The notes under the pieces were generated by a model. It was given only the letters and a program-made list of their open reading frames with translations. It was not told the origin of the DNA and ran no database searches. From Escherichia coli (GTDB lineage Bacteria > Pseudomonadota > Gammaproteobacteria > Enterobacterales > Enterobacteriaceae), in assembly GCF_003991155.1 (NCBI RefSeq), contig NZ_CP031293.1: DNA of 64,000 nt. One strand, 5' to 3'. Both the position numbers and the translations under genes were made by a program. Shown piece after piece: positions 1,864-64,000 of this stretch; the stretch's first letter is position 1, and each line of letters opens with the position of its first letter.

Positions 1864-1940
1864 TGAGTCGCTACCTGAAGGAGTTGGGCGGGCAGGTATG
1901 TAATTTTACTCGTCGTACTTAATTATGCCAACAAATTACA

Positions 1941-1956
1941 CTGGATAAAAAAACAG
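1941..1956 (-). promoter_or_regulatory. LexA (SOS) box in uvrB promoter
   Basis: ctggataaaaaaacag; reverse complement CTGT-N8-ATCCAG fits CTGT-N8-ACAG consensus with one mismatch, about 80 bp upstream of uvrB start. Confidence 0.7.
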
Positions 1957-44932: not shown

Positions 44933-45012
44933 TTTTTATATATTCCCTGTGGCAAATATTGCTAAACAATGCCCGGGGATTAATTTTTATTACTCACGGA
45001 AAGATTTAAATA

Positions 45013-45435: not shown

Positions 45436-45981
45436 ATCCACCCAGTCGCGAAAATGGCCTGCGTTATTGCCAGAGGTAATAAAACCTTTGATTAACGTTA
45501 CTCATACTGGTAGCACCTTCATGTACCTCTCTTTTTTACGAAAAATCAAAAGAGCTAACTAAGGTCATAATTCGCATGAATCATTAACCATTTGTTATTT
45601 TCAACATTATTTTTACATTAAGCAGAGATGAATTGCAGTGAAATTCGACTTAAATTTTATGAAATGCATTTACTCATGGCTAAACCCATATCACTAAAAT
45701 GCAAATTAGAAGTAGATCACAAATACCTCAATACACCAAATCAAGTTAATTTTAAAAATTTAACATTCATGACATTAGTTGACATAACACACTGAATTAA
45801 CATGAGAATTTAACAACATACTTTAAACAATCATTTCCCGAAAGACATTTTGAAAATAGATCAATTGCAACATTACGGTCAGATAAAGACACTCCTGTGA
45901 TATTAAACCTGTGCCGTTATGAACGGCCATAAATACGACGTGTGTAACTTATTTTACTCTCTGTCTTACAAAGGATTACCC

Positions 45982-46431
45982 ATGAAGAAAGCAACACTTG
46001 TGATTGGCGTTATTGGCGCGGACTGCCATGCAGTAGGCAATAAAGTTCTGGACCGCGTTTTTAGCAACCATGGCTTCAGAGTCATTAATCTGGGCGTAAT
46101 GGTCAGCCAGGACGAATATATTGATGCGGCCATTGAAACTGGCGCTGACGCGATTGTCGTCTCCTCTATCTATGGGCATGGCGATATCGACTGTCTGGGC
46201 ATGCGCGAACGCTGCATCGAGCGTGGACTGGGGGACATCCTGCTCTATGTGGGCGGTAACCTGGTGGTCGGAAAACATGACTTCGCTGACGTGGAAACCA
46301 AATTCAAAGAGATGGGATTTGATCGCGTCTTTGCCCCAAGTCATGACTTAGAAGATGTTTGTCAGCTGATGGCACACGATATCAACCAACGTCATGACGT
46401 TGATACTCGTATTCTTGAAGAGGCAATCTGA
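45982..46431 (+). CDS. Glutamate mutase sigma (S) subunit, B12-binding
   Basis: [24 protein letters not shown]: DxHxxG cobalamin-binding motif; strong similarity to clostridial GlmS/MutS; aagga RBS; ORF track start 45919 is an extension. Confidence 0.9.
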
Positions 46432-47819: not shown

Positions 47820-47837
47820 CAATTAAGGCTGCAATCA

Positions 47838-49283
47838 ATGGAACTTCGAAATAAGAAATTAACCCATGACGAATTCATGACCGAGCGGCAACAGGTACTG
47901 AAAACCTGGGAAACCGGCAAGGATGTTGAAAACTTTGAAGATGGCGTTAAATACCAACAAACCATTCCTGAGCATAAACGCTTCTCTCTTGCCCTGCTGA
48001 AAGCAGACAAGGAAGGTAAAACTCTTAGCCAACCGCGCGCAGGCGTGGCGCTGATGGACGAACACATCGAACTACTGAAAACACTACAAGAAGAGTGCGA
48101 TCTGCTGCCGAGCACCATCGATGCATATACCCGTCTGAATCGGTACGAAGAAGCGGCTGTAGGGATTAAAAAATCCATCGAAGCCGGAACCTCTAAACTG
48201 AACGGTTTACCGGTCGTTAACCACGGCGTCGCAGCTTGCCGTCGCCTCACCGAAACTCTGCAAAAACCGCTACAGATCCGCCACGGCACGCCAGATGCGC
48301 GTCTGCTGGCTGAAATCTCGATGGCCAGCGGCTTTACCAGTTATGAAGGCGGCGGCATTTCCTACAATATTCCGTATGCCAAGCGCGTAACGCTGGAAAA
48401 ATCGATCCGCGACTGGCAGTACTGCGACCGTTTAATGGGGATGTATGAAGAACACGGGATCCGCATCAACCGCGAACCGTTTGGCCCACTAACGGGTACC
48501 CTGATCCCGCCGTTTATCTCGCACTCTATCGCGATAATCGAAGGCTTGCTGGCGCTGGAACAGGGTGTGAAATCTATCACCGTTGGTTATGGACAGGTCG
48601 GCAGCCTGACGCAGGATGTTGCGGCGATCCAGTCTCTGCGTGAACTTGCACACGAATATTTTCAGAGCTATGGCTATACCGACTATGAATTAAGTACCGT
48701 GTTTCACCAGTGGATGGGCGGCTTTCCGGAAGACGAATCGAAAGCGTTCGCTATTATCTCCTGGGGCGCAGCCGTCGCGGGGATGTCTGGTGCCACCAAA
48801 GTCATCACCAAAAGTCCGCACGAAGCCTGGGGCATCCCGACTGCCGCTGCCAACATTCAGGGGCTGAAAGCCTCCCGCCAGATGCTCAACATGGTCAACG
48901 AGCAGAAATTCCCGCCGTGCCCTGCGGTTGAACTGGAAATTGAACTGATTAAGAGCGAGGTTCGCGCGGTACTGAATAAAGTGTTCGAACTGGGTAATGG
49001 TGATATTGCGCGCGGTACGGTGCTGGCATTTGAAGCGGGCGTACTGGATGTGCCGTTTGCGCCAGCCGCCTGCAACGCGGGCAAAATTCTTCCGGTCCGT
49101 GACAACACCGGCGCGATACGCGTACTGGAAGCCGGAGCCGTTCCATTGCCAAAAGATATTCTCGACCTCCACCACGATTACGTTGCGGAACGCGCACGCT
49201 TTGAAGGACGCCAACCGACATTCCAGATGGTTGTAGATGACATCAATGCTGTATCCCACAGTAAATTAATAGGAAGACCATAA
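47838..49283 (+). CDS. Glutamate mutase epsilon (E) catalytic subunit
   Basis: MELRNKKLTHDEFMTERQQVLKTWETGKDV closely matches clostridial GlmE/MutE N-terminus; 481 aa. Confidence 0.9.
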   Translation: MELRNKKLTHDEFMTERQQVLKTWETGKDVENFEDGVKYQQTIPEHKRFSLALLKADKEGKTLSQPRAGVALMDEHIELLKTLQEECDLLPSTIDAYTRLNRYEEAAVGIKKSIEAGTSKLNGLPVVNHGVAACRRLTETLQKPLQIRHGTPDARLLAEISMASGFTSYEGGGISYNIPYAKRVTLEKSIRDWQYCDRLMGMYEEHGIRINREPFGPLTGTLIPPFISHSIAIIEGLLALEQGVKSITVGYGQVGSLTQDVAAIQSLRELAHEYFQSYGYTDYELSTVFHQWMGGFPEDESKAFAIISWGAAVAGMSGATKVITKSPHEAWGIPTAAANIQGLKASRQMLNMVNEQKFPPCPAVELEIELIKSEVRAVLNKVFELGNGDIARGTVLAFEAGVLDVPFAPAACNAGKILPVRDNTGAIRVLEAGAVPLPKDILDLHHDYVAERARFEGRQPTFQMVVDDINAVSHSKLIGRP

Positions 49284-50524
49284 TGAAAATAAAACAGGCT
49301 CTGTTCACCGCTGGCTACTCCTCATTCTATTTCGATGACCAGCAGGCGATAAAAAACGGAGCGGGTCATGACGGCTTTTTTTATACCGGGGAGCCGGTAA
49401 CACAGGGGTTTAACGCCGTTCGTCAGGCCGGGGAGTGCGTATCAGTACAGTTGATTCTGGAAAACGGCTCGGTCGCCGTAGGTGACTGTGCTGCCGTACA
49501 GTATTCCGGGGCAGGTGGTCGCGATCCACTGTTCCTCGCTGAGCACTTTATTCCGTTCCTCAACGACCATATCAAGCCATTACTGGTAGGCCGCGATGTG
49601 GATGCTTTCCTGCCGAATGCCCGTTTCTTCGACAAATTGCGTATTGACGGCAACTTGCTGCATACCGCCGTGCGCTACGGATTATCACAGGCGCTGCTTG
49701 ATGCTACCGCGCTGGCAACCGGCCGTCTGAAAACTGAAGTAGTTTGCGATGAATGGCAGTTGCCACGCGTGGCGGAATCCATTCCATTATTTGGTCAGAG
49801 CGGGGACGATCGATATATCGCCGTCGATAAGATGATCCTTAAGGGCATCGACGTGCTGCCCCATGCACTGATTAATAACGTCGAAGAGAAACTGGGCTTT
49901 AAAGGTGAAAAACTGCGCGAATATGTCCGCTGGCTGTCGGATCGTATTCTGAGCAAGCGCACCAGCGCACGCTACCACCCTACCCTGCACATCGATGTAT
50001 ACGGCACTATCGGTCTGATCTTCGATATGGATCCGCTTCGCTGTGCGCAATACATCGCCAGCCTGGAAAAAGAAGCGCAAGGCCTGCCGCTCTACATTGA
50101 AGGGCCGGTCGATGCCGGTAACAAGCCCGATCAAATTCGCCTGCTGACCGCGATTACCAAAGAGCTGACGCGCCTCGGTTCCGGCGTGAAAATTGTGGCC
50201 GATGAATGGTGTAACACCTACCAGGATATTGTTGATTTCACTGATGCCGCCAGTTGTCACATGGTGCAAATCAAAACCCCGGATCTGGGCAGTATTCACA
50301 ACATCGTCGATGCGGTTCTTTACTGCAACAGCCACAGCATGGAAGCGTACCAGGGCGGCACCTGCAATGAAACTGATGTCAGTGCCCGCACCTGTGTCCA
50401 CGTCGCCCTTGCCGCTCGCCCTATGCGTATGCTGGTAAAGCCAGGGATGGGCTTTGACGAAGGCCTCGATATCGTCTTCAACGAAATGAATCGTACTATC
50501 GCGCTGTTGCAGGCTAAGGATTAA
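49283..50524 (+). CDS. 3-methylaspartate ammonia-lyase (beta-methylaspartase)
   Basis: MKIKQALFTAGYSSFYFDDQQAIKNGAGHDGF..DCAAVQYSGAGGRDPLF matches clostridial methylaspartase; start overlaps E-subunit stop. Confidence 0.92.
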   Translation: MKIKQALFTAGYSSFYFDDQQAIKNGAGHDGFFYTGEPVTQGFNAVRQAGECVSVQLILENGSVAVGDCAAVQYSGAGGRDPLFLAEHFIPFLNDHIKPLLVGRDVDAFLPNARFFDKLRIDGNLLHTAVRYGLSQALLDATALATGRLKTEVVCDEWQLPRVAESIPLFGQSGDDRYIAVDKMILKGIDVLPHALINNVEEKLGFKGEKLREYVRWLSDRILSKRTSARYHPTLHIDVYGTIGLIFDMDPLRCAQYIASLEKEAQGLPLYIEGPVDAGNKPDQIRLLTAITKELTRLGSGVKIVADEWCNTYQDIVDFTDAASCHMVQIKTPDLGSIHNIVDAVLYCNSHSMEAYQGGTCNETDVSARTCVHVALAARPMRMLVKPGMGFDEGLDIVFNEMNRTIALLQAKD

Positions 50525-50527
50525 CAA

Positions 50528-51898
50528 ATGGCTCGTTCTTTTAAAGTCTTATCGCCAACGGCAATCCTCGGGTATGGATTCCCGGAAGAGAGCTTCCGCA
50601 AAGCGATGGCAGAATCGCCCGATCTGATCGCCGTTGATGCAGGCTCTTCCGATCCTGGCCCCCACTACCTCGGAGCGGGCAAACCGTTTACCGATCGCGC
50701 AGGGGTCAAGCGCGATCTGCGCTATATGATCACCGCAGGCGTGCAAAATAATATACCGGTGGTGATCGGAACAGCTGGCGGTTCTGGTGCCGCACCACAC
50801 CTGGAGTGGTGCCGAGAAATAATTCATGAGATTGCCCGGGAAGAGCGACTCGTGTTCTCGATGGCGCTGATCCCGGCAGACGTTGACAAAGCCATCGTCC
50901 ACCAGGCGCTGGATAACGGCAAAATCACGGCGCTGGATTTTGTCCCGCCGTTAACCCACGACGCGATTGACGAAAGTACGTATATCGTTGCGCAAATGGG
51001 CATCGAACCCTTCCAGCGGGCGCTGAAAGAAGGCGCGCAAGTGGTGCTGGGCGGGCGCGCTTACGACCCGGCCTGCTTTGCTGCGCTCCCGATCATGCAA
51101 GGCTTTGATGAAGGTCTGGCGCTGCATTGTGGGAAAATCCTTGAATGCGCGGCAATCGCCGCAACGCCCGGCTCAGGCTCTGACTGTGCGATGGGCATCA
51201 TTGATGACAACGGCTTTACGCTGAAGACATTTAATCCGAAGCGTAAATTTACCGAAACGTCAGCGGCTGCACACACACTGTATGAGAAATCCGATCCCTA
51301 CTTCCTGCCTGGACCTGGCGGCGTGTTGAACCTGAAAGGCTGCACATTTAAAGCGGTCAATGACGGCGAAGTGTACGTCAGCGGTTCTAAGCATGAAGAA
51401 ACGCCGTATGCCCTGAAACTGGAAGGTGCGCGACGGGTGGGCTTCCGCTGTCTGACCATCGCAGGAACGCGCGACCCGATCATGATCGCCGGGATCGATA
51501 AAATCATCGATGAAGTCAAAACCAGCGTTTCACGTAACCTGTCGCTCGACGATGACAGCATTCGCATCAATTTCCACCTGTACGGCAAAAACGGGGTGAT
51601 GGGCGACCATGAACCGATGCAAACTGCCGGGCATGAGCTGGGGATTGTCCTTGATGTAGTTGCACCGACCCAGGAAATTGCCAATAGCGTTTGCTCGCTG
51701 GTGCGCTCTACCATGCTGCACTACGGCTATGAAAACCGCATCGCTACCGCAGGCAATCTGGCGTTCCCGTTCTCCCCTTCTGATATCCAGGGCGGGCCGG
51801 TATACGAATTTTCCATATATCACCTGATTGAAGCCAACGACGCTCTGCGTTTTGATTTCCATATTGAACAGGTGACGCCAGAAGGAGTTCAGGCATGA
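50528..51898 (+). CDS. DUF1446-like (AtuA-like) protein of unknown function
   Basis: 456 aa; N-terminus ...VLSPTAILGYGFPEE resembles the DUF1446 family by recall; 3 nt after methylaspartase stop. Confidence 0.65.
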   Translation: MARSFKVLSPTAILGYGFPEESFRKAMAESPDLIAVDAGSSDPGPHYLGAGKPFTDRAGVKRDLRYMITAGVQNNIPVVIGTAGGSGAAPHLEWCREIIHEIAREERLVFSMALIPADVDKAIVHQALDNGKITALDFVPPLTHDAIDESTYIVAQMGIEPFQRALKEGAQVVLGGRAYDPACFAALPIMQGFDEGLALHCGKILECAAIAATPGSGSDCAMGIIDDNGFTLKTFNPKRKFTETSAAAHTLYEKSDPYFLPGPGGVLNLKGCTFKAVNDGEVYVSGSKHEETPYALKLEGARRVGFRCLTIAGTRDPIMIAGIDKIIDEVKTSVSRNLSLDDDSIRINFHLYGKNGVMGDHEPMQTAGHELGIVLDVVAPTQEIANSVCSLVRSTMLHYGYENRIATAGNLAFPFSPSDIQGGPVYEFSIYHLIEANDALRFDFHIEQVTPEGVQA

Positions 51899-52212
51899 AA
51901 CAGTCAATTGTCTCACTGGCGCAAGTCATTCGTTCGAAAAATGCCGGACCTTACGAACTGGTTTTAGATATTTTATTTAAAACGAAAGAAAACTATGAGC
52001 GAGTTAAATCATCAGGGCAATTAACCCCAGAACTGATTGCGCGCTTATATCATGTTGAACCTGACTTTATTCACCGTATTGTCTGGTTTGATCCTTCTAA
52101 CGCAGTAAAAATCGTCATGCCACGAGATATTATCTCCGGGAATGTAGGTGACAATGATGTCTATGGTGCACAGCAACATGCACCTTTATTAAATATGAGT
52201 TTCGATTTGTAA
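51895..52212 (+). CDS. DUF4387-like small protein (usual partner of DUF1446)
   Basis: 105 aa; ATG overlaps upstream stop (ATGA); family assignment by recall. Confidence 0.6.
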   Translation: MKQSIVSLAQVIRSKNAGPYELVLDILFKTKENYERVKSSGQLTPELIARLYHVEPDFIHRIVWFDPSNAVKIVMPRDIISGNVGDNDVYGAQQHAPLLNMSFDL

Positions 52213-52372
52213 AAATCCGAATACTTTTAGCCAACTGACATCCCGTCACTTATTGCAGTTCAACACTTCAGCTATTTGTAAGGTTGTAATAGCAGGTAGA
52301 TGCCTGAATCTCTATTCAGGCATCTACTTCTCCTGATTCTGATTTATCGCCGTGCACCTGATGGAGGAAAAA

Positions 52373-53653
52373 ATGAAGAAAATAAGTTTAACCACGATGA
52401 TTCTTTTGGCGCTGGTACTTGGAATGATTATCGGCGTAGTGCTCAATAACACTGCTTCACCGGAAACCGCAAAACTCTATGCGCAAGAAATATCGATATT
52501 CACGACGATTTTCTTACGACTGATAAAAATGATTATCGCTCCGTTAGTGGTCTCTACCCTGGTGGTAGGTATAGCTAAAATGGGAGATGCCAAAGCCCTT
52601 GGTCGTATTTTTTCTAAAACACTCTTTTTATTTATTTGCGCCTCATTGCTGTCAATTGCCTTAGGCTTGATAACGGTAAATTTCTTCATGCCAGGCACAG
52701 GAATTAATTTTGTTGCACACGGTGCCGAAACCACCGGAGTGGTCGCGTCAGAACCCTTTACACTAAAAGTATTTATTTCGCATGCTTTCCCCACCAGCAT
52801 TGTCGATGCCATGGCACACAATGAAATTTTGCAAATCGTGGTGTTCTCAATTTTCCTCGGCTGTAGCCTGACGGCGATTGGTGAGAAAGGCAGCGCCATC
52901 GTTCACGCCTTAGATTCGCTGGCACATGCCATGTTAAAGCTCACTGGCTACGTCATGCTCTTCGCTCCCCTGACCGTATTCGCCGCTATTTCAGCATTGA
53001 TTGCTGAACGAGGACTGGCAGTTATGGTGAGCGCCGGGATCTTTATGGGTGAATTTTATTTCACCATGTTGTTACTTTGGGTGCTGCTTATCGGTCTGGC
53101 CATCGTTTATGTCGGCCCCTGCATCAGACGCCTGACCCGTGCCCTTTCGGAACCCGCCCTGCTGGCATTTACCACATCCAGTTCTGAAGCGGCTTTTCCG
53201 GGAACGCTTGAAAAACTGGAGCAATTTGGCGTTTCCCCCAAAATTGCCAGCTTTGTCTTACCCATTGGCTACTCATTTAATCTCGTTGGATCAATGGCCT
53301 ACTGCTCCTTCGCCACAGTTTTCATCGCCCAGGCCTGCAATATCCATTTATCCATCGGTGAGCAAATCACCATGCTGTTGATCCTGATGTTGACCTCGAA
53401 AGGAATGGCTGGCGTACCACGCGCCTCAATGGTGGTTATCGCCGCCACGCTCAACCAGTTCAATATTCCGGAAGCGGGGCTGATCTTGCTGATGGGCGTT
53501 GATCCGTTCCTTGATATGGGGCGTTCCGCGACAAACGTCATGAGCAACGCAATGGGCGCTGCGATGGTGAGTCGGTGGGAAGGCGAACATTTCGGCGAGG
53601 GCTGTCGGGGTAAAGCATTAAAACCCAATGAATCGAACGTTGCTCTGCCCTGA
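52373..53653 (+). CDS. Dicarboxylate/amino acid:cation symporter (DAACS, GltP-like)
   Basis: 426 aa polytopic protein; ggagg RBS before ATG 52373; ORF track start 52352 is an extension. Confidence 0.8.
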   Translation: MKKISLTTMILLALVLGMIIGVVLNNTASPETAKLYAQEISIFTTIFLRLIKMIIAPLVVSTLVVGIAKMGDAKALGRIFSKTLFLFICASLLSIALGLITVNFFMPGTGINFVAHGAETTGVVASEPFTLKVFISHAFPTSIVDAMAHNEILQIVVFSIFLGCSLTAIGEKGSAIVHALDSLAHAMLKLTGYVMLFAPLTVFAAISALIAERGLAVMVSAGIFMGEFYFTMLLLWVLLIGLAIVYVGPCIRRLTRALSEPALLAFTTSSSEAAFPGTLEKLEQFGVSPKIASFVLPIGYSFNLVGSMAYCSFATVFIAQACNIHLSIGEQITMLLILMLTSKGMAGVPRASMVVIAATLNQFNIPEAGLILLMGVDPFLDMGRSATNVMSNAMGAAMVSRWEGEHFGEGCRGKALKPNESNVALP

Positions 53654-53760
53654 GGGGGATCTTAAGCAATCAGAAGCCAATGACTACGCATTTTTATAAG
53701 CCGGATCATGAAGTTAGACGGCAATTAAGTAAAACTAACGTTTAAGGTGAAAAGTGAAAT

Positions 53761-55413
53761 ATGTCCAAACCATTTATCTGGCAAGAACCGTTTCTACAAA
53801 ATAAAGACGGTACAGAATATACATTAATTAGCGATCAACATATTACAGTAACGGAATTAGACGGCGAAGAAGTGATAAAAATCGCTCCTGAAGCATTAAC
53901 GCTGCTTGCCCGGCAGGCATTTTATGAAGCCTCTTTTTTCTTACGTTCCGCTCATTTGCAACAGGTCGCCAGCATTCTTAACGATCCGCACGCCAGTAGT
54001 AATGATAAATACGTTGCGTTGCAGTTATTACGTAATGCTGAAGTCTCAGCAAAAGGGGTATTACCCAACTGTCAGGATACCGGCACCGCAACTATTGTTG
54101 CCAGTAAAGGGCAACAGATATGGACCGGAGGTAACGACGCTGAAGCCTTAAGCAAAGGCATTTACACCACTTTTCAGGAAAATAATCTGCGCTTTTCACA
54201 AAATGCGCCACTGGATATGTATACCGAAGTCAATACGCAAACCAATCTACCGGCGCAGATTGATATCAGCGCCGTCGCTGGTGATGAGTACCATTTTCTC
54301 TGTATTAATAAAGGGGGCGGCTCTGCCAATAAAGCCGCGCTTTATCAGGAAACCAAATCCCTATTGCAACCAGAAAAACTGACCGCATTTTTAATCGAAA
54401 AAATGAAATCGCTGGGCACCGCTGCCTGCCCGCCTTACCACATCGCCTTTGTCGTCGGAGGGCTTTCAGCCGATCAAACCTTAAAAGTTGCCAAGCTGGC
54501 CTCAACGAAATATTACGACAATTTGCCCACCAGCGGAAACGAGCAAGGACAAGCATTCCGTGATATTGAGCTGGAAAAAGTATTGCTCGAGGCCAGTCAG
54601 CAATTTGGTATTGGTGCGCAATTTGGGGGTAAATATTTCGCTCATGATATTCGCGTCATTCGTCTGCCGCGTCACGGTGGCTCTTGCCCGATAGCTATGG
54701 CGCTCTCCTGTTCTGCGGATCGCAATATCAAAGCAAAAATTAACAAGCACGGTATCTGGCTGGAAAAACTCGAACACAATCCGGGGCAATATATTCCAGC
54801 CTCACTGCGGGAAGAAAATCACGCGCAACATGTACAGCTGGATCTAAACCGTCCGTTGCGTGACGTGATGCAGGATCTCGCCAGATTACCGGTAGGCACC
54901 CGCGTGTCGTTAAGTGGTCCCATCGTAGTGGCGCGCGATATCGCCCACGCCAAAATAAAAGCGCGGCTGGATAGCGGCGAACCGATGCCGGATTACCTGA
55001 AGCATCATATTGTCTATTACGCTGGCCCGGCGAAAACACCGGAGAACATGGCCTGCGGTTCACTGGGTCCAACCACGGGCGGTCGAATGGACGGTTATGT
55101 CGATACCTTCCAGGCGGCTGGCGGCAGTCTGGTGATGTTATCGAAAGGTAACCGCAGCCAGCAGGTCACCGATGCCTGTCACAAACATGGCGGCTTCAAT
55201 CTGGGGAGTATTGGCGGTGCAGCTGCGTTACTGGCGCAAGAATATGTCAAAAGTCTGCGTTGCCTGGAATACCCGGAGCTGGGTATGGAAGCGGTGTGGA
55301 TGATGGAAGTGGAAAATTTACCCGCATTCATCCTGGTAGATGATAAAGGCAATAATTTCTTTAGTCAGTTTGAGCAGCAACACCGCTGCGCCAGTTGCCC
55401 TGCGGGACATTAA
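53761..55413 (+). CDS. fumD: Class I (Fe-S) fumarate hydratase-family enzyme, probable mesaconase
   Basis: 550 aa, FumA/FumB-like along full length; context with methylaspartase suggests mesaconate hydration; symbol follows the name used for the E. coli O157:H7 enzyme (recalled, not verified). Confidence 0.8.
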
Positions 55414-55422
55414 GGAAAATGA

Positions 55423-56025
55423 ATGGAAGCGCGAATTTCAACTGAACGGCATGTGCAGCGCCAGCAGAAATTGAAGGAACAGGTCGATACGCGCGTCGCG
55501 GCGGCGATAGAGAAAAAAGGGATTTTGATTGTTTTCACCGGCAACGGCAAAGGGAAATCCACTGCCGCGTTTGGTACTGTGACGCGCGCGGTGGGTCATG
55601 GCAAAACGGTGGGGGTTGCGCAGTACATCAAGGGGCAATGGGACAACGGCGAATACAACCTTCTCCAACCGCTGGGGGTTGAGTTTCATATTATGGGAAC
55701 CGGTTTTACCTGGGAGACACAGAACCGGCAAGCGGATATCGACGCGGCGAAAGAGGTCTGGTCGGAAAGCAAACGGATGCTGGCTGACAAGCGTTACGAC
55801 TTAGTGGTGCTTGATGAGCTGACCTATATGCTGGCTTACCATTATCTGGACACCGAAGAAGTGATCGCTTCTCTGCAAAACCGCCCGGCACAACAAAGTG
55901 TCATTGTCACCGGACGCGGTTGCCACAGTCAGATATTAAAAATGGCGGATACGGTCAGCGAAATCCGCCCCGTCAAACATGCTTTTGATAACGGCATTCA
56001 GGCGCAGCCGGGTATCGACTGGTAA
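55423..56025 (+). CDS. Cob(I)alamin adenosyltransferase (BtuR/CobA/CobO family)
   Basis: 200 aa; P-loop GNGKGKST; 9 nt downstream of the hydratase. Confidence 0.85.
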   Translation: MEARISTERHVQRQQKLKEQVDTRVAAAIEKKGILIVFTGNGKGKSTAAFGTVTRAVGHGKTVGVAQYIKGQWDNGEYNLLQPLGVEFHIMGTGFTWETQNRQADIDAAKEVWSESKRMLADKRYDLVVLDELTYMLAYHYLDTEEVIASLQNRPAQQSVIVTGRGCHSQILKMADTVSEIRPVKHAFDNGIQAQPGIDW

Positions 56026-56058
56026 TAACTGCGCCTGGCATCCCGCCAGGCGCAGGTT

Positions 56059-56964
56059 TTACATCTCCTGCGGTACGACCGATTTCGCCAGCAACCATTC
56101 ACGAAATTGCTGCAAGTGCGGTGAGTCAGACTTCTCTTCCTGCCACGTCATAATAAAACGATTACCGGTACGAATAGGCACATCACAGGGAATCACCATA
56201 TCGCCACTATCCAAATCATGTTGAATAGCGAACCGTGGTAACAGCGCCACGCCGAGATTAGAGCGCACGGCGGCAATCAGCATTGAAAGCAAATCGAAAC
56301 GTGGTCCGTTATTGACCAGCGGACTGCTAACGCCAGATAAAGCAAACCACTCTTCCCAGCCAGTAATACGGGTGCTTTGATGCAGAAGTGGTAACTCAGT
56401 AAGCAGTTCTGCCACTGACAGTTTTTGATCGGACATTGCAAGCAAACTGCCGCTGCATACCGGCAAAATCTCCTCATCAAAGAGATATTCTACTTCCGCC
56501 CAGGGCGCGCAAAAATTTTCGCGCATAATGACAGCATCGTACTCCCGATTAAGAAAATCGCCGTTATTAGCTAAAGAATGAATATTAACAATAATATCGG
56601 GATGTAACTTTGTGAATTCATGTAAATTTGGGATTAACCAGTGGGTACTAAAAGTAGGATTAACGGCAAGTTCAATAACCTGAACCGTAGGCTGCCAGGT
56701 CATAATGGTATTGGTATCGCGTTCCAGCTTATTTAATGTTTCTTTTACTATCCCCAGGTAATACTTCCCTGCATCATTAAGAAAAATGCGTTTTTTAGAG
56801 TGTGAAAATAACGGAGTACGTAAAAATTCCTCCAGCGCACTTACTTGTCTGAATACTGCACTTTGGGTTAACGCTAACTCCTCTGCCGCTCTGGTATAAC
56901 TTTCATGACGTGCGACGACCTCAAAAGTCACCAGCAGTTCCGTTTTAGGTATTTTTCCTCGCAT
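56059..56964 (-). CDS. LysR-family transcriptional regulator
   Basis: 301 aa; N-terminal HTH FEVVARHESYTRAAEELALTQSAVFRQVSALE. Confidence 0.85.
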   Translation of the reverse strand: MRGKIPKTELLVTFEVVARHESYTRAAEELALTQSAVFRQVSALEEFLRTPLFSHSKKRIFLNDAGKYYLGIVKETLNKLERDTNTIMTWQPTVQVIELAVNPTFSTHWLIPNLHEFTKLHPDIIVNIHSLANNGDFLNREYDAVIMRENFCAPWAEVEYLFDEEILPVCSGSLLAMSDQKLSVAELLTELPLLHQSTRITGWEEWFALSGVSSPLVNNGPRFDLLSMLIAAVRSNLGVALLPRFAIQHDLDSGDMVIPCDVPIRTGNRFIMTWQEEKSDSPHLQQFREWLLAKSVVPQEM

Positions 56965-57002
56965 AATGCCTTCCCTTAAAAATAGTTGAAACTATCAAAA
57001 AA

Positions 57003-57026
57003 CCATTACTTATTGCTAAGTAATGG
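57003..57026. promoter_or_regulatory. Perfect inverted repeat, candidate operator upstream of LysR gene
   Basis: ccattacttattgctaagtaatgg (10-bp arms, 4-bp spacer) 40 bp upstream of LysR start; contains T-N11-A type LysR motif. Confidence 0.4.
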
Positions 57027-57234
57027 CAACCAAAGCAGCAATCAATATTTTATAAAAATCATGTTCGATATTTATAACCTGGTAAGCCTGGCGTGACAAT
57101 TGTCTCAATCAGACAATAATAATCCGAAAAGCAAAACGCCCTTCGGATTATTATGATTCAAGTTAAGTGAAGATTATTAAATTGATAGCAATTATCATAT
57201 CTATGGATATTATGACAAACAATCAACAAAAATT

Positions 57235-58905
57235 TTATTTTTGATTTATAGCATATCCTTCTAAGAATTTTTGCGAAGCTGCAATATCTGGGGTAAAGAC
57301 CCGATCCTGGTCGACAAACGGCACGACTTTTCTGTATTCGGTAAACATTGCTTTGGTGGATTTCCCTAATGCCAGTTGTGGATCGGCCTGCAACCGTAAA
57401 TCGAGAGCCTGTGCGGAATGCATCAGTTCAATGCCATAAATCACGTTCAGATTATCGACAACCTGTTTCAATCTTCTGGCCGCGTGGTCATTATTGGCAC
57501 CGGTATCTTCTATACCTCCGGCAACCGGTTGAATATCGAAAGAAACCGGGTTAGCGAGATCGACATTTTCCGCATGCAGCGCAACAAACGGGATATGTAA
57601 TGAACCGAAGCCATGACCTTTATTACCTGCTGCCGACAGGAAGCGTGACAAACCGGTAAAGTGATCATCTTCAAGATGCAGCGAGCGGCGCATACTGTTA
57701 TGTGAAACATGCACTAACGCCACGGTCAGACGCTGGGTGGCAAGCGCAACCGGTAACGATTCGAAATTCGCCGTCGGGAAGATCCCACCGCTGATTGCCC
57801 CATCTTTAACAAAATATTGCGCGACCTGACTGGAGTCCTGATACGCTTTGTCTGCATTCAGCACGGTTGCCGGGTTGTCATCGGAACTGTTGATCTGCAC
57901 GGTAATGGTATCTTCAGCATCGCGCAACGCGCGCATTGCCTCAGAAATGGTATACACCGTCGTTCTGAACGATAACGGATCCTGCAATGCACGTTTGTCA
58001 TGCTTATGCCATAAATAAGAACCACTTAACGCATCGCGAATCTCTTTAGCGGAATCAGCCAACTGCGGGAAAGGACGCACGGCGATCGACTGCGGCAGTA
58101 CCGGCGCGACATTGCCATTCAACGCTTCCAGACTCATAGCGAAAACCACCGGGCTGACATTCAGCAACTGACGTGCCGAACGAACAGCTTCGATAGCGTA
58201 GGCTGTCCCGACGCTGTTGTTCGATAAAATCGCCAGCATATCTTTACCCTGCGGTACCAGTGGCTTAAGTCCCACTTTCGCCAGCGCGTCACCACCGCTC
58301 ATTTGCACGCCATTTACTCGGGCTTTCCATTCCCCCATCATCACCAGACCAACGTGCGAAGCGAGCATAATATCCGCTGCGCCGATACTTCCCCGCACCG
58401 GAATTAACGGTGTAACGCCGCGATTAATAAATTCGGCATACAACTCGGCAATATAAGGCTGTGCGCCGGTTTGCCCATGCAGCATGGTATTTAAACGTAA
58501 TACCATTGAAAGGCGTGCCAGATAATCCGGTAACATCGGACCAACGCCCGCAGAATGGGCGCGCAGCGCGGCAGCATTAAATTTTTTCGACGCGTCAATC
58601 ACCTCAGGCGTTAAATTTCCTTTGGCATCAAATATGGGCTGATCTTTATTTAGCCCCACGCCCACGGTTAAGCCATAAACAGGCGTACCTGAATGCGCGG
58701 CAGTCATCACCAGATCATAACTTTTTTCCATGCGCTCCATGGCGTTCGACGCGATTTTGACGCCGTTATCACCTAATGCAATTGACCAGGCCTGGTCAAT
58801 GGAAAGATGTTCGCCATCCAGCGTAATGGTTGATTTCGCCATCGCAATGGAGCAAACGCTCCAGAGCACAACGGTGACAGTGACTCTTCGTATCAATCCT
58901 TTCAT
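57235..58905 (-). CDS. Histidine/aromatic ammonia-lyase family homolog with predicted signal peptide and disrupted MIO (Ala-Ser-Gly) motif
   Basis: 556 aa; aligns with HAL throughout (e.g. GEWKARVNG.., LSNNSVGTAYA) but has GSIGAADIMLASH where HAL has GSVGASGDLAPLAH; N-terminus MKGLIRRVTVTVVLWSVCSIAMA-KS is Sec-signal-like; aagga RBS 6 nt upstream. Confidence 0.8.
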   Translation of the reverse strand: MKGLIRRVTVTVVLWSVCSIAMAKSTITLDGEHLSIDQAWSIALGDNGVKIASNAMERMEKSYDLVMTAAHSGTPVYGLTVGVGLNKDQPIFDAKGNLTPEVIDASKKFNAAALRAHSAGVGPMLPDYLARLSMVLRLNTMLHGQTGAQPYIAELYAEFINRGVTPLIPVRGSIGAADIMLASHVGLVMMGEWKARVNGVQMSGGDALAKVGLKPLVPQGKDMLAILSNNSVGTAYAIEAVRSARQLLNVSPVVFAMSLEALNGNVAPVLPQSIAVRPFPQLADSAKEIRDALSGSYLWHKHDKRALQDPLSFRTTVYTISEAMRALRDAEDTITVQINSSDDNPATVLNADKAYQDSSQVAQYFVKDGAISGGIFPTANFESLPVALATQRLTVALVHVSHNSMRRSLHLEDDHFTGLSRFLSAAGNKGHGFGSLHIPFVALHAENVDLANPVSFDIQPVAGGIEDTGANNDHAARRLKQVVDNLNVIYGIELMHSAQALDLRLQADPQLALGKSTKAMFTEYRKVVPFVDQDRVFTPDIAASQKFLEGYAINQK

Positions 58906-58955
58906 TGTGTTTCCTTATCATGATGAGTTTAACAACGGGTTACTGCGACAACGTT

Positions 58956-59906
58956 TTAATTTGTTCTATCTGTTTTCCCCCGCCGGACAATACTGGTCAC
59001 CAGGCGAGCGGCAACTTTCGCAGTTAAATTATCGCGGTCCAGGTCCGGGTTAAGTTCGGCAATATCCGCAGCAATCAACTTCTCGCTACCGGCGATTAAA
59101 TTCACAATGGCTTCAGTAATATTTAACGGCACGCCTAACGGTGATGGAGCAGAAACACCGGGCGCCTGATAACCTGGTAAAACATCGAGACAAATCGTTA
59201 AATAAATGGCGTCACAAGCCTGAATATCTGCCGAGAGCGCATTAGCGATCTCATGCAAACCACGTTCAAATTGCAGAGATTCGTCCAGCCAATAACGCAC
59301 ACCGAGACAATCAGCGCGATCAAATAACGCCTGAGTATTGGCAAAACGACTTATTCCCAGCACGCGATAATGAAACGGTTTGCCATGCTGCGCGTTCCAC
59401 TCTTGCATCTGACGAAACGGCGTACCTGAATTGGCTTGTTCCGCCATCCGTAAATCAAAATGCGCGTCAAGGTTCACAATCAGTAACCGCTGAATATCCG
59501 GACGCGACTGCATAATCCCCTGAAATGTTCCCCACGCCACTTCATGACCGCCCCCCAGAACCACCGGTAAACTGCCGCGCGCAATGGCTGTAGATACGTT
59601 AGCCGCCAGACGATTTTGTGCGGATTCCAGCGCGTGGTCCTCGCTTTGTACATCGCCCATATCGAAAATAGCGCCTTCACAGAGCACTGGCATATTTCCC
59701 AACATGCTGCGCAACGCGCCCGGTCCGCCTGCTGCACCCGCTCGCCCATCATTACGTTGCACTCCGTCATCAACGGCAAAACCAATCAGCGTACAACCGC
59801 CGTGGCTTTGTTCACTAAACGGTTGCACATGCTGATGCCAGCGAGTGCTGATGCCGGTTTCCTGCGAGTCAACACGCCCACTCCACGGCAAAAATGTTTG
59901 CTTCAT
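58956..59906 (-). CDS. hutG: Formimidoylglutamase (arginase family)
   Basis: Start at MKQTFLPWSGRVD (ATG overlapping hutI stop); arginase-fold metal-binding motifs (LDAHFD). Confidence 0.8.
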   Translation of the reverse strand: MKQTFLPWSGRVDSQETGISTRWHQHVQPFSEQSHGGCTLIGFAVDDGVQRNDGRAGAAGGPGALRSMLGNMPVLCEGAIFDMGDVQSEDHALESAQNRLAANVSTAIARGSLPVVLGGGHEVAWGTFQGIMQSRPDIQRLLIVNLDAHFDLRMAEQANSGTPFRQMQEWNAQHGKPFHYRVLGISRFANTQALFDRADCLGVRYWLDESLQFERGLHEIANALSADIQACDAIYLTICLDVLPGYQAPGVSAPSPLGVPLNITEAIVNLIAGSEKLIAADIAELNPDLDRDNLTAKVAARLVTSIVRRGKTDRTN

Positions 59907-61117
59907 TACCAACTCCTTTTTCCGCCGACAATAAGCCCCTGGCAAGGCTGATGCCCAAACCAGTAAGCCAGTTCACGTGGATGATTAAGATCCCAGACCG
60001 CCATATCCGCCCGTAATCCCGGTGCAAGTTCACCCCGGTCAATAAGTCCAAGTGCCTTTGCCGCATTACGCGTAACGCCCTGAACGGCTTCCAGCGGCGT
60101 CATGCGAAACAGCGTACAGGCCATATTGATCATCAATGGCAATGACATATTGGGAGACGTTCCGGGATTATGGTCCGTGGAGATAGCAATCGGCACACCT
60201 GCGGCCCGCAGAGCGACAATCGGCGGCAGATGGGTTTCGCGCAGGAAGTAATAAGCACCGGGAAGCAAAACCGCCACTGTTCCAGCCGCTTTCATGGCGG
60301 CGATCCCCGACTCGCTCAGGTACTCCAGATGATCGCAGGAGAGTGCAGAAAACGCCGCTGCCAGCGCCGCGCCTTGCTGGTCAGAAAGCTGTTCGGCATG
60401 CAGTTTTACAGGTAATCCATAGCTTTGCGCTTTACTGAAAACGCGCCGTACCTGCTCTGGAGTAAAGGCGATGTTTTCACAAAAAGCATCAACTGCATCA
60501 ATCAGCCCCTGTTCATGCAACACGCACATCCAGTCGCAAAGCGCCGTAATGTAATCATCACTGCGCCCGGCAAACTCTGGCGGCAGGCTGTGCGCCCCGA
60601 GAAACGTAGACTGAATATGTAACCCGGTAGATTGCTGCAAGCGGCGGATCACGCGTAAACAACGTGCTTCATCTTCCAGCGTTAAGCCATAACCCGATTT
60701 GATTTCAAGCGTACTGACGCCTTCACGTTGCCAGTTTCGCAGTCGCTGCGCCGCCAGTTCAAACAACTGTGTTTCGCTGGCTGCCCGCGTGGCATTAACC
60801 GTAGATAAGATCCCGCCGCCCGCTCTGGCGATATCTTCATAAGCCACGCCTTGCAACCGCATCTCAAACTCGTTCGCCCTCTGGCCGCCATACACCAGAT
60901 GTGTATGACAATCCACCAGACCGGGTGTCAGCAACTTACCCTGTAGATCGTGTTCCTCTGTAATATCAGCCGTCAGTTCACGGGGGATCTGCGTGGCCTT
61001 CCCAAGCCAGACAATCGAGTCACCACGGCTGATTAATGCCCCCTTTTCAATCACTCCCCAATCGTTAGCGGAAAGCGTCGCCAGCGTGGTATTTCGCCAG
61101 AGCGTTAATGCACTCAT
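59906..61117 (-). CDS. hutI: Imidazolonepropionase
   Basis: Amidohydrolase HxH motif (CHTHLVYGG); ATG at 61117 overlaps hutD stop (ATGA); alternative GTG start at 61150. Confidence 0.85.
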   Translation of the reverse strand: MSALTLWRNTTLATLSANDWGVIEKGALISRGDSIVWLGKATQIPRELTADITEEHDLQGKLLTPGLVDCHTHLVYGGQRANEFEMRLQGVAYEDIARAGGGILSTVNATRAASETQLFELAAQRLRNWQREGVSTLEIKSGYGLTLEDEARCLRVIRRLQQSTGLHIQSTFLGAHSLPPEFAGRSDDYITALCDWMCVLHEQGLIDAVDAFCENIAFTPEQVRRVFSKAQSYGLPVKLHAEQLSDQQGAALAAAFSALSCDHLEYLSESGIAAMKAAGTVAVLLPGAYYFLRETHLPPIVALRAAGVPIAISTDHNPGTSPNMSLPLMINMACTLFRMTPLEAVQGVTRNAAKALGLIDRGELAPGLRADMAVWDLNHPRELAYWFGHQPCQGLIVGGKRSW

Positions 61118-61704
61118 AAGGATTTTTCCCCTCGTAGATAATAAAGCCACCAGCCCGCCAGCTCACCGACGGAGACTTTCTTCCGTGGTACGAAACGCCA
61201 GGGCCTGCCATCAGGTGCAACCAGCCATAACAACATATTTGCCGCGACAAACACCCTTTTCTTGCCGCTTATCCACTCCCCTTCACACAGCGTGAACAGG
61301 CCCGCTTGCGCAAGTGACGGAGGACGCCAGTCAACGGCACTTTGCACCCGCAACATCCCCGCATCGCCTTCCCGCGCCATAACATTCAGATCGCGAACCC
61401 CGCCGCCCAGCAGCTGGCAATCAGGCATAGCTTCTCCAGGGAAAATTAAGGCGGGATCGTGACGTTGCAGGTTGATGATCGAATCGGCAAACGTTAGCTT
61501 CACCCCTTCCCCGTCGAGAATCGCGAGGCCACGAACCACGCCAGGCCACGCTGAAAAAGAGCCATCCTGACTGACATTCGCCATACTGATGCGCAACAAC
61601 CAGTTTTCATCATCGGGCCAGGCAAGCAGCTGTCGGGTAAACCCCCCGCCGTTGCGCCACGGTTGCAGCGGCTTATCCATTGCAGAAATCAGCATCGGTT
61701 CCAT
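61114..61704 (-). CDS. hutD: HutD-family protein
   Basis: 196 aa with WRNGGGFTRQL motif typical of HutD/Ves family. Confidence 0.75.
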   Translation of the reverse strand: MEPMLISAMDKPLQPWRNGGGFTRQLLAWPDDENWLLRISMANVSQDGSFSAWPGVVRGLAILDGEGVKLTFADSIINLQRHDPALIFPGEAMPDCQLLGGGVRDLNVMAREGDAGMLRVQSAVDWRPPSLAQAGLFTLCEGEWISGKKRVFVAANMLLWLVAPDGRPWRFVPRKKVSVGELAGWWLYYLRGEKSL

Positions 61705-61705
61705 A

Positions 61706-63115
61706 TTAAGACTCGGGATAAATCGTATAAGCAGGAACGCAGGTGGTGCGTTTGGCCCACGGGTAATAGATAACGGCGGTAATTAACAAGCCGACAATCC
61801 AGGAGATATCCGCCCCATCCATCAGGACAGAAATGGGTCCCTGATACAGTTTTTGATTCAGGAAGGGGATCTGCACCAACACGCCTACGCCATAGCACGT
61901 CAAAGCGGTTTTGTTATACGCGCCATAACGCCCTTCCGGGGTATAAAGTGCCGGAATATCGGTTTTACCTTGTGAGATGAAGTAGTAGTCGATGAGATTA
62001 ATGGCGCTCCACGGCACAAATACCGTCAACAGCAGCAGAACGAAGTTTTTGAAATTATTCAAAAAATCTGCGCTTGCCGCCAGCGCGACGACCATCGACA
62101 ACAGCACGAACCCTACAACGTAGGCAGCACGAACACGCTGTGAAACCTGACTGCGATTATTAAAGGCGCTGACGGTCGCCAGAATCGACATAAAGCCACC
62201 GTAGGCATTCAAACAGTTCACCGTCAGTTTGCCGCAAACAATCACCGTATAAATCAGAATGGCGAAGGTGGGTCCGGCTAACTCACCCATAAAACCAACC
62301 TGATCCTTCAGGAAGTTAGCACCACAGGCCGCAACAAGCACGCCAAACGTCATGGCACATTGCGCGCCAAGCGTGGTTCCCAGAAAGGTGGCAAAGAAGA
62401 TTGATTTTGCTGGCGTATCAGAGGGTAAATAGCGGGAATAATCAGAGGCGTAAGGGGCAAACGTTAATTGCCATCCGGCAGAGAGAGCAATCGTTAATAA
62501 AAAGACCGACAGACTAAATGGCTTTTGACCAAATGCCGCAGCCACATCGTAGTGACCGCTAAGTTGAGTGGCCAGGTAAATAAACCCCAGAATACTTAAT
62601 ATCCCTGCAACACGGCCAACGACGTGAATAAGTTTATAACCGACCAATGCGATCATCGCGGTCAGCATGCCGAAAATAATAATTCCGGTCGATGCCGATT
62701 CGAAACCAAATATCCGGTTAATCGCCTGACCGGATAATACTGTACCCGTCGCGGCAAATCCAAGGTACATAATAATCACCATCAGTAACGGTAGCGCCGC
62801 TCCTTTAACGCCAAAGCGGATACGACTGGAGATCATCTGGGGTAATCCCAGCTTTGCCCCCTGCGACGAGTGCAATGCCATTACTGCACCACCAATAATA
62901 TTACCGATTAATAAACCAATTATTGCTGACATGGCTTCGGAGCCAAAAATAATCGCTAACGCGCCGTCCACCACAGCGGTAATTTGTAAGTTAGCACTTA
63001 GCCATAAAGTAAACTGACTGGATGGCGAGCCGTGGCGAGCAGACTCAGGAACGGCGTTAATCGTATTTGATTCTAATACTGGCTTTTTACTGCGGATAGG
63101 GCTGCTTGATTCCAT
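61706..63115 (-). CDS. NCS1-family (nucleobase/hydantoin-type cation symporter) permease
   Basis: 469 aa from ATG 63115 preceded by aggag RBS; ORF track TTG start at 63160 rejected. Confidence 0.8.
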   Translation of the reverse strand: MESSSPIRSKKPVLESNTINAVPESARHGSPSSQFTLWLSANLQITAVVDGALAIIFGSEAMSAIIGLLIGNIIGGAVMALHSSQGAKLGLPQMISSRIRFGVKGAALPLLMVIIMYLGFAATGTVLSGQAINRIFGFESASTGIIIFGMLTAMIALVGYKLIHVVGRVAGILSILGFIYLATQLSGHYDVAAAFGQKPFSLSVFLLTIALSAGWQLTFAPYASDYSRYLPSDTPAKSIFFATFLGTTLGAQCAMTFGVLVAACGANFLKDQVGFMGELAGPTFAILIYTVIVCGKLTVNCLNAYGGFMSILATVSAFNNRSQVSQRVRAAYVVGFVLLSMVVALAASADFLNNFKNFVLLLLTVFVPWSAINLIDYYFISQGKTDIPALYTPEGRYGAYNKTALTCYGVGVLVQIPFLNQKLYQGPISVLMDGADISWIVGLLITAVIYYPWAKRTTCVPAYTIYPES

Positions 63116-63278
63116 GAAAAAGTCTCCTGCAAAATGAGAGGTCATTTTTTGAAACAGCAATAGAGGGTCGGGAGATATTTCTCTCGACGATGTAAAAATA
63201 TTTTTTGATAATTATTGTTATACAGGCGAATTATTCTCCGCCTGTATTAGCGCAAATATTAAATGACGGCGTTAATAT

Positions 63279-64000
63279 TTAGCGAATCATCGGTAATTTC
63301 AGACCATAGTTTTTGGCACATTCAATTGCCGCTTCATAACCCGCATCCGCATGACGCATAACCCCGGACGCACAGTCATTCACCAGCACACGCGCCAGAC
63401 GTTTTTCGGCTTCTTCGCTACCATCGGCAACAATAACCATCCCGGCGTGTTGTGAATACCCCATCCCGACGCCGCCGCCATGATGCAGGGATACCCACGT
63501 TGCTCCCCCTGCAGTGTTGAGCAAACCGTTGAGCAACGGCCAGTCAGAAACCGCATCACTGCCATCAAGCATGCTTTCGGTTTCGCGGTTCGGGCTGGCG
63601 ACAGAACCGGTATCAAGATGATCGCGCCCAATCACAATCGGTGCTTTTAGTTCACCGTTGCGCACCATTTCGTTGAATGCCAGCCCCGCCAGGTGACGCT
63701 CACCAAGCCCCAGCCAGCAAATACGTGAAGGAAGTCCCTGGAAGGCAATGCGCTCGCGCGCCATATCCAGCCAGCGATGCGTCAGTACGTTATTGGGGAA
63801 CAACTCTTTAATTTTGGCATCAGTTTTATAGATATCTTCCGGGTCGCCAGACAGCGCCACCCAACGGAATGGACCTTTGCCTTCACAAAACATTGGACGA
63901 ATATAAGCCGGAACAAAGCCCGGGAAATCAAAGGCATTTTGCAGACCTTCGTTGAAGGCCACCTGGCGGATGTTGTTGCCATAATCGACAACCGGGATCC
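63279..64000 (-). CDS. hutU: Urocanate hydratase (urocanase), C-terminal part; 5' end beyond window
   Basis: Translation ..[26 protein letters not shown].. matches urocanase C-terminal region; reading frame continues to window end. Confidence 0.85.

Follow-up and report, generated by a model that had tools for sequence, protein, structure and literature searches.

A predicted periplasmic, MIO-independent trimethylammonia-lyase, putatively acting on hercynine, in a hut-like operon of Escherichia coli

Lyases of the histidine ammonia-lyase (HAL) fold that carry a leader and lack the Ala-Ser-Gly precursor of the 4-methylideneimidazol-5-one (MIO) electrophile have recently been described in Shewanella. 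In this study, a gene of Escherichia coli is compared with them; it lies at 57235..58905 on the minus strand of a 64,000-nucleotide stretch of contig NZ_CP031293.1 (assembly GCF_003991155.1), called the window below, and encodes a 556-aa MIO-less HAL-fold protein (here, the lyase) that is predicted to be a trimethylammonia-lyase. Swoo_3913 of Shewanella woodyi has a leader, has no Ala-Ser-Gly and converts histidine betaine (hercynine) into urocanate and trimethylamine, being inactive on histidine and the other proteinogenic amino acids tested; its Asn439 sits at the position of Lys384 of the Treponema denticola ergothionase (Td_ETL), which binds the thiolate and whose replacement abolished activity (bioRxiv 10.1101/2025.08.13.670108). 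SO_3057 of S. oneidensis, in which the Lys is retained, is an ergothionase, and SO_3299, with Gln at this position, is inactive on hercynine and specific for N(pi)-methyl hercynine (bioRxiv 10.64898/2026.04.22.720169).

According to these preprints of the Bogachev laboratory, all three genes adjoin genes of periplasmic flavocytochrome/UrdA-type reductases and serve anaerobic respiration, and the mechanistic rationale offered is that trimethylamine leaves readily, which makes MIO dispensable. The leaders of the Shewanella lyases were predicted and removed for expression, SO_3057 and SO_3299 being predicted-periplasmic proteins. The literature that we found on MIO-less betaine lyases consists of two preprints from that laboratory, neither of which mentions the E. 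coli gene; searches on S-methyl-ergothioneine lyases, thiourocanate hydratases and hut islands of E. coli yielded nothing further of relevance. A 2026 paper states that E. coli annotations are without an ergothionase homologue, and the classical report (1962) of ergothionase in E. coli never had a gene assigned to it.

Leader-bearing MIO-less HAL-fold lyases are thus no longer an unknown class, although their descriptions are confined to these 2025-26 preprints and to respiratory modules. What is new is a Lys-less His-Ile/Val signature of apparently independent origin, the recruitment of such a lyase into a hut operon that is assimilatory and includes a presumed importer, and its presence in E. 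coli, against the literature statement that no ergothionase homologue occurs there. We propose, with a probability of about 0.6, that the product is a periplasmic hercynine trimethylammonia-lyase and that the urocanate it would form is imported and catabolised to glutamate. The wider statement, that the protein is an exported MIO-independent trimethylammonia-lyase for some histidine-derived betaine, is highly probable.

The gene has the same start and product in the annotation of the Prokaryotic Genome Annotation Pipeline (PGAP; WP_001361287.1, 'HAL/PAL/TAL family ammonia-lyase', in E. coli 2016C-3878 and many other strains). The Pfam family Lyase_aromatic (PF00221) matches residues 34-526 with E = 2.8e-123, far beyond chance, which bears out the HAL/PAL-family protein of 556 aa that a preliminary description of this DNA had placed here and adds the strand, minus, that it did not give. 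Its further statement that the protein is not a canonical HutH agrees with the score of 281 bits against the hutH equivalog TIGR01225, for which the cut-off is 539; the lyase also falls far below the cut-offs for every MIO enzyme model in NCBIfam. The best solved relative is the Treponema ergothionase (6s7j), both in the single-sequence search (5.5e-85 vs ~1e-49 for HAL; HMMER) and in the family-profile search (1.2e-174 vs ~1e-128), with 38 % identity over 485 aligned positions between the T. denticola ergothionase and the lyase. The AlphaFold2 model (predicted local distance difference test score 92) gave a template modelling score (TM) of 0.94 to 6s7j and of 0.90-0.91 to HAL structures, and the kinship with ergothionase that had been suggested is therefore found in sequence and in fold alike. 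Judged by its sequence and its modelled fold, the lyase belongs with the MIO-independent trimethylammonia-lyases and is not a degenerate HutH. In at least one complete genome, that of E. coli SX4 (NZ_CP142398.1, 3325140-3326810), this gene is labelled 'hutH: histidine ammonia-lyase', and other database entries start the lyase at Met22 (P0002 and P0006, 535 aa); both the label and these starts are probably wrong annotations.

In HAL-fold lyases, the active site is assembled from three subunits. Alignments with HAL, with ergothionase and within the family place the loop G172-SIGAADI-M180 (58366..58392, minus strand) at the site of the Ala-Ser-Gly MIO precursor of HAL, phenylalanine ammonia-lyase (PAL) and tyrosine ammonia-lyase (TAL). 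When R171-GSIGAADIM-180 is aligned to GSVGASGDL of Pseudomonas putida HAL (HMMER), it shows Ala-Ala and a one-residue gap, the disruption and deletion that the preliminary description had noticed, and the ergothionase loop SIGEGDIT, aligned with SIGAADIM of the lyase, has the same one-residue shortening. An intact Ala-Ser-Gly elsewhere in the loop was looked for in the family alignments, which comprise the query and its 120 best database relatives (121 sequences), and none was found in or near the loop of the lyase or in the loop of the 120 relatives.

The residues shared with the active MIO-less lyases are kept. Tyr77 (58675..58677, minus strand), in an invariant alignment column, corresponds to the tyrosine that abstracts the beta-proton (HAL Tyr53, Swoo_3913 Tyr77; role from bioRxiv 10.1101/2025.08.13.670108). 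In the family alignment, the imidazole ligands His117 and Glu466 and the carboxylate ligands Gln308, Arg314 and Asn344 are all present. Asn195 and Tyr280 of HAL, which are residues of the MIO/amine chemistry, are replaced by Ser228 and Leu311, and ergothionase has the same replacements; the HAL residues for which an alignment had been recommended are thus divided, the equivalents of Tyr53 and Glu414 (Tyr77 and Glu466) remaining and those of Asn195 and Tyr280 being lost.

The substrate pocket differs from that of the ergothionases at His437-Ile438 (57592..57597, minus strand), the signature of a small clade, in which Ile438 aligns with Lys384 of the T. denticola enzyme. Canonical histidases have Gln-Val or Gln-Tyr at the two equivalent positions, and Ile438 therefore resembles the residue of enzymes whose bound imidazole is unsubstituted. 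P0155, which represents the N(pi)-methyl type, has exchanged the two imidazole ligands, with Gln in place of His117 and Asp in place of Glu466. The lyase, with a neutral residue in place of the Lys (Ile438) and with His117 and Glu466 intact, has the pattern of the histidine betaine lyases.

Concerning the N-terminus, a 23-residue Sec-type extension had been suggested, and codons 1-23 (58837..58905, minus strand; MKGLIRRVTVTVVLWSVCSIAMA) have the n-, h- and c-region features and the hydropathy of a Sec signal peptide with predicted cleavage after A-M-A. The leader contains the basic residues K2, R6 and R7, a 13-residue core (V8-I20; 9-residue Kyte-Doolittle maximum 2.3) and A-x-A at -3/-1 ahead of Lys24, and in the AlphaFold2 model it forms a detached helix (residues 2-21) before the first strand. 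The mature end, KSTITLDG, lines up with residue 1 of leaderless Enterococcus homologues (MKAIVLDG), the earlier remark having been that the mature sequence begins exactly where cytoplasmic HALs do. Of the 121 aligned sequences, 106 are extended at the N-terminus by 15 residues or more, and in 103 of these the extension is hydrophobic with a basic start; the sequences without a leader-like extension are Gram-positive proteins, two alternative-start entries and a few truncated calls. A lipoprotein leader or a twin-arginine translocation (Tat) leader was rejected, as the leader has no lipobox, the homologue P0007 conserves neither the Cys nor the twin Arg, and the Tat consensus is poor.

Translation from the internal Met22, which would yield a cytoplasmic protein and had been raised as a refuting observation, is made unlikely by a Shine-Dalgarno sequence (AAGGA, 58912..58916, minus strand) 6 nt before ATG1, which reads GAGGA in the contig of an 85 % orthologue; no purine-rich motif was found upstream of the Met22 codon. 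This orthologue keeps the upstream ATG, the Shine-Dalgarno sequence and an open, hydrophobic 23-codon extension, with synonymous differences per site (pS) of 0.61, near saturation, and a ratio of nonsynonymous to synonymous differences per site (pN/pS) of 0.47 in the leader vs 0.11 in the mature part. In P0008, a 68 % orthologue, the internal position is not a Met. These data make Sec-type export of the lyase to the periplasm a well-supported prediction.

The lyase is the last gene of a same-strand series in the order hutU, NCS1 permease, hutD, hutI, hutG, lyase, and the hut-like operon of the preliminary description is thereby recognised gene by gene. The 3' part of hutU (63279..64000, minus strand; TIGR01228), a canonical urocanate hydratase gene, runs past the window end and is followed after 163 nt by the NCS1 ('cytosine') permease gene (61706..63115, minus strand; TIGR00800 ncs1), whose product is the presumed urocanate importer. 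About 10 nt further lies a HutD/Ves family gene (61114..61695, minus strand; PGAP, weak Ves match), which overlaps by 4 nt with hutI (imidazolonepropionase, 59906..61117, minus strand; TIGR01224 451 bits, cut-off 298; PGAP). hutI overlaps by 1 nt with hutG (formimidoylglutamase, 58956..59906, minus strand; TIGR01227 292 bits, cut-off 229; PGAP), and 50 nt separate hutG from the lyase; with such spacings, the genes from hutU to the lyase would be co-transcribed. The full-length hutU, taken from the E. coli 2016C-3878 contig L001, gives 934 bits on the urocanase equivalog TIGR01228 (cut-off 375) and stays below the cut-offs of thiourocanate hydratase (670 < 930) and S-methyl-thiourocanate hydratase (672 < 880). 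As both curated cut-offs are missed, a pathway through thiourocanate or its S-methyl derivative was rejected. No hutH and no hutC were found in the island that carries the operon or elsewhere in the window, the island has no flavocytochrome gene, and no thiourocanate hydratase, desulfhydrase or thiourocanate reductase gene lies near the lyase.

The link between the permease and the lyase is supported by contig L013 (SRR27755633_23718, 1545-5377), which carries the 85 % orthologue: the permease (85 % identity) and the lyase are intact and adjacent there, while hutU is a C-terminal remnant only and hutD, hutI and hutG are gone. That the two genes have stayed paired despite the loss of the hut genes argues that their products work together. 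A 67 % homologue of the permease is found in a Comamonas testosteroni operon (hutC-hutH-regulator-NCS1-hutU-hutD-hutI), which indicates that an NCS1 permease is a regular transporter of hut operons. In Pseudomonas, hut operons include a urocanate-specific transporter, HutTu, whose role, not its protein family, is confirmed by a review.

Among the 121 aligned sequences, residues 437/438 are Gln-Lys in 102, His-Ile or His-Val in 18 including the query, and Gln-Asp in one. The His-Ile/Val members are the proteins of E. coli and E. marmotae, P0007 (85 %), P0008 (68 %) and leaderless proteins of the Enterococcus avium group. A scan for the coding motif GH[GA]FGSLH[IV]P found it in 5 of 100,044 species genomes (a Citrobacter metagenome-assembled genome (MAG), Escherichia sp. 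E1V33, as a remnant, and three Enterococcus species), a count that is a lower bound because the pattern misses GSIH variants. The closest relatives outside the clade share 53-62 % identity with the lyase and have the Gln-Lys signature. In the neighbour-joining tree, the His-Ile/Val group is monophyletic and nested inside the leader-bearing Gln-Lys lyases, and P0124 (Swoo_3913 type, Gln-Asn) and P0155 (SO_3299 type, Ala-Gln) stand on a different branch; both are representatives of 50 % clusters, typed from their residues (and P0124 also from a similar C-terminus) and not by name. This nesting indicates that the Lys was lost independently of its loss in Swoo_3913. Ten positions cleanly separate the clade from the Gln-Lys lyases (180, 408, 412, 435, 437, 438, 458, 464, 469 and 495), with Q437H, S412E, F/Y469G, G458I/V and A435S as clade-private substitutions.

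The gene contexts also vary among the relatives. Three Gln-Lys genes (in a Burkholderiaceae MAG, E. albertii and a metagenome contig) lie beside FAD_binding_2 flavoproteins with cytochrome c or FMN_bind, in line with the preprints. In the Enterococcus avium group (L002, L003 and L004; L002 5518-12554), a conserved block contains genes for a sigma-54 activator, a FadX-like coenzyme A (CoA)-transferase, an OFA-family MFS transporter, the leaderless His-Val lyase and a FabK-like enoyl reductase, and looks like a CoA-dependent reductive route for a betaine-derived enoate. P0008, which has a leader and His-Val (L005 7255-18345), adjoins hydroxyproline catabolic genes (DHDPS-like, aldehyde dehydrogenase, Ldh_2, proline-racemase-like and D-amino-acid oxidase-type), upstream of which its contig has genes for an OprD porin and an amino-acid permease. 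The hut arrangement occurs only in Escherichia and in the Citrobacter MAG (L008).

Based on these findings, the intact imidazole and carboxylate ligands, the loss of the thiolate ligand, the predicted export, and the company of an importer and of genes leading from urocanate to glutamate in an operon with no urocanate-forming enzyme together point to a hercynine lyase that would replace HutH. The lyase would be exported by Sec and cleaved after Ala23, as its sequence features and homologues suggest. In the periplasm, it would bind N-alpha-trimethyl-histidine, with His117 and Glu466 holding the imidazole and Gln308, Arg314 and Asn344 holding the carboxylate; Tyr77 would then take the beta-proton, and trimethylamine would depart to leave trans-urocanate, a chemistry that is known for relatives and is extended here to the presumed substrate. 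As trimethylamine is a good leaving group, the reaction should need no MIO electrophile. The NCS1 permease may import the urocanate, and HutU, HutI and HutG, canonical by their equivalog assignments, would convert it to glutamate and formamide. In this way, the lyase would stand in for HutH in a hut operon without hutH, and the island-bearing E. coli (~3 % of strains) could use hercynine instead of histidine. The action on a substituted histidine that the preliminary description had considered is accordingly rendered probable by the residue pattern and the context.

Compared with Swoo_3913, the lyase has in common the HAL fold without Ala-Ser-Gly, the leader, the neutral residue for the ergothionase Lys, and genetic coupling to a urocanate-consuming enzyme. 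Tyr77, His117, Gln308 and Arg314 have identical numbers in both proteins, and Glu466 and Asn344 of the lyase correspond to Glu467 and Asn339. The two are, however, not orthologous, as the lyase is 41 % identical to the Swoo-type P0124 and lies on a separate branch; Swoo_3913 has Gln/Asn where the E. coli lyase has His437/Ile438, and its partner is the periplasmic urocanate reductase UrdA, whereas the E. coli lyase is accompanied by a cytoplasmic Hut pathway and an importer.

Several points weigh against hercynine as the substrate and in part favour another compound. The substrate is deduced from one missing Lys and from gene context, and the reasoning that a lyase without this Lys acts on histidine betaine failed for SO_3299. 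The histidine-betaine lyase that has been characterised is no orthologue of the E. coli clade, which has Ile/Val where the Swoo type has Asn and whose private substitutions (Q437H, S412E, F/Y469G, G458I/V and A435S) may affect the pocket. No hut genes lie beside the His-Ile/Val lyases of Enterococcus or P0008, so that the hut link is specific to Escherichia and Citrobacter. Moreover, the permease homologues in classical hut operons could carry histidine, and the Shewanella data are preprints in which leader cleavage is itself a prediction.

A lyase for another histidine-derived betaine, such as N(tau)- or N(pi)-methyl hercynine, S-methyl-ergothioneine, selenoneine or an undescribed compound, with a partial or indirect link to the hut genes, is the alternative that best survives, although we consider it unlikely. 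Three specificities, set by few residues, already exist in the family, and SO_3299 defied simple prediction; the clade-private substitutions cluster around 412-469, including His437 and Gly469, the Enterococcus members and P0008 have non-hut contexts, and the hydrophobic Ile/Val beside C2 of the imidazole could suit an S-methyl group. However, HutU is canonical and below the cut-offs for the thiourocanate and S-methyl-thiourocanate hydratases, HutI and HutG are canonical as well, and the operon contains no other enzyme that makes urocanate. In addition, His117 and Glu466 are intact, unlike in the N(pi)-methyl-type P0155.

A periplasmic ergothionase, which would cleave ergothioneine into thiourocanate and trimethylamine and would account for the activity reported in 1962, is improbable. 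The closest solved structure is an ergothionase, the nearest relatives (53-62 % identity) bear the Gln-Lys ergothionase signature, and the classical E. coli activity is still without an assigned gene. SO_3057 and the other Gln-Lys relatives are closest to the lyase in sequence, share the leader and the MIO-less loop, and enclose the E. coli clade in the neighbour-joining tree, but they have Gln-Lys against His-Ile and have flavocytochrome c or FMN_bind-FAD reductase neighbours against hutU-hutI-hutG and an NCS1 permease. The T. denticola ergothionase (6s7j/6s7q), the best match among solved structures, likewise has the shorter MIO-less loop and Ser and Leu for Asn195 and Tyr280 of HAL, but is cytoplasmic without a leader and has Lys384 where the E. 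coli lyase has Ile438. As this thiolate-binding Lys is essential, its replacement having abolished the activity of Td_ETL, the Ile makes an ergothionase function of the lyase unlikely. HutU is canonical, and the neighbourhood encodes no thiourocanate hydratase, desulfhydrase or thiourocanate reductase. The E. coli strain W is reportedly the strain of the 1962 ergothionase work. Since W has no island and carries mngR-mngAB between sucD and cydA, the classical activity is not attributable to a lyase gene at that locus.

The HutH of P. putida (1b8f/1gkm) shares with the lyase the fold, the catalytic Tyr, the imidazole ligands (His83 and Glu414 there), the carboxylate ligands and, as proposed for E. 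coli, the role of first enzyme of the hut operon; it differs in having Ala-Ser-Gly/MIO, Asn195 and Tyr280, and in being a cytoplasmic enzyme that deaminates free histidine. That the lyase is a non-catalytic or decaying remnant of such a HutH (a pseudoenzyme or the binding protein once considered) or a cytoplasmic product from Met22 is very improbable. The MIO tripeptide, Asn195 and Tyr280 are lost, some entries start at Met22 and the operon is deleted in most E. coli, but purifying selection on the gene is strong (pN/pS of 0.06 for the two E. coli alleles and of 0.12 for the comparison with the 85 % orthologue), and every ligand of the carboxylate and the imidazole that active MIO-less lyases share is kept, together with the catalytic Tyr. 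The Shine-Dalgarno sequence before ATG1, the extension kept in orthologues, P0008 without the internal Met and the leader-like N-termini in 103 of 106 extended homologues speak for the upstream start.

Beyond the proposed hercynine lyase itself, we give even odds to the idea that the His-Ile/Val clade is a fourth, independently evolved specificity class, which in E. coli would serve as an 'outsourced HutH' on dietary or fungal hercynine, the glutamate perhaps being fermented by the mesaconate genes that lie beside the operon. The His437/Ile438 signature is a concrete candidate for a specificity determinant and is open to testing. The operon would illustrate how a hut pathway can be rewired to another entry substrate, HutH being swapped for an exported lyase and the product importer being kept, and, if the proposal is true, it would be the first case of a periplasmic betaine lyase that serves assimilation and not respiration. 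About 2.7 % of the complete E. coli genomes carry this ergothionase homologue, hidden under the names 'HAL/PAL/TAL family ammonia-lyase' or 'hutH', and pipelines that name the gene hutH, as in SX4, are probably wrong.

Trimethylamine from gut bacteria is the precursor of trimethylamine N-oxide, a cardiometabolic risk marker. To our knowledge, choline, carnitine, betaine and, rarely, ergothioneine are the starting compounds of the known bacterial routes to trimethylamine. A hercynine-splitting enzyme of E. coli, if it is one, would add a route in a very common gut species, and a subset of E. coli, including extraintestinal pathogenic strains such as CE10, would be unrecognised producers of gut trimethylamine from histidine betaine.

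The region 56000-64000 is 100 % identical to several complete E. coli genomes. The island occupies the sucD-cydA interval, in which K-12 and W have mngR-mngAB, and contains, besides the hut operon, genes for glutamate mutase, methylaspartase, mesaconase and CobO. The full lyase gene was found in 144 of 5426 complete E. coli genomes (~2.7 %), as two alleles ~5 % apart. About 839 further complete genomes, O157:H7 among them, retain no more of the lyase than 194 bp of its 3' end, in two pieces, in the LysR-sucD interval (in O157:H7 TW14359, L020 6001-6194, equivalent to window positions 57235-57776); in these genomes, everything from hutU to the lyase has been deleted together with an RtcB-family gene. 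In Escherichia sp. E1V33, the remnant of the lyase is ~0.9 kb long. The remnant-only genomes indicate that the operon was lost repeatedly or early.

Downstream of the lyase, after 270 nt, lies a LysR-family regulator gene (56059..56964, minus strand; profile match and PGAP), which is retained in O157:H7, where the hut-lyase operon is lost. A terminator-like hairpin with a T-run (57002..57027, minus strand) is located in the 270-nt gap past the lyase stop; it comes from a consensus scan only, and since the promoter and terminator scans gave no more hits in the region than in shuffled sequence, it is mentioned as a description.

Beside the hut-like operon, positions 44000-56025 of the plus strand hold a complete glutamate mutase/methylaspartase/mesaconase (mesaconate pathway) cluster with a B12 adenosyltransferase. 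The genes include methylaspartate ammonia-lyase (49283..50524), an AtuA-like gene (50528..51898) paired inside the cluster with a DUF4387 gene (51895..52212), a symporter (52352..53653), a class I fumarase (53761..55413) and cobO (55423..56025), all on the plus strand. As glutamate is the end product of the hut-like operon, the two may form one catabolic island leading from a histidine derivative to glutamate and then to fermentation. In E. coli 2016C-3878, the interval between hutU and sucD contains an RtcB-family gene (L001 21735-23132), with no visible rtcA or rtcR, and at its opposite end the island has an IS1A copy immediately upstream of glmS (L001 643-1340).

Between the two E. coli alleles of the lyase, pS is 0.18, yet they do not differ in their first ~80 nt or in the preceding 60 nt (window 58826-58965, set against L014, which is CE10, and the Citrobacter MAG L008), and the two E. 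coli strains share their protein accessions for HutU and for the permease. This pattern suggests a recombination mosaic between the alleles that is centred on the lyase.

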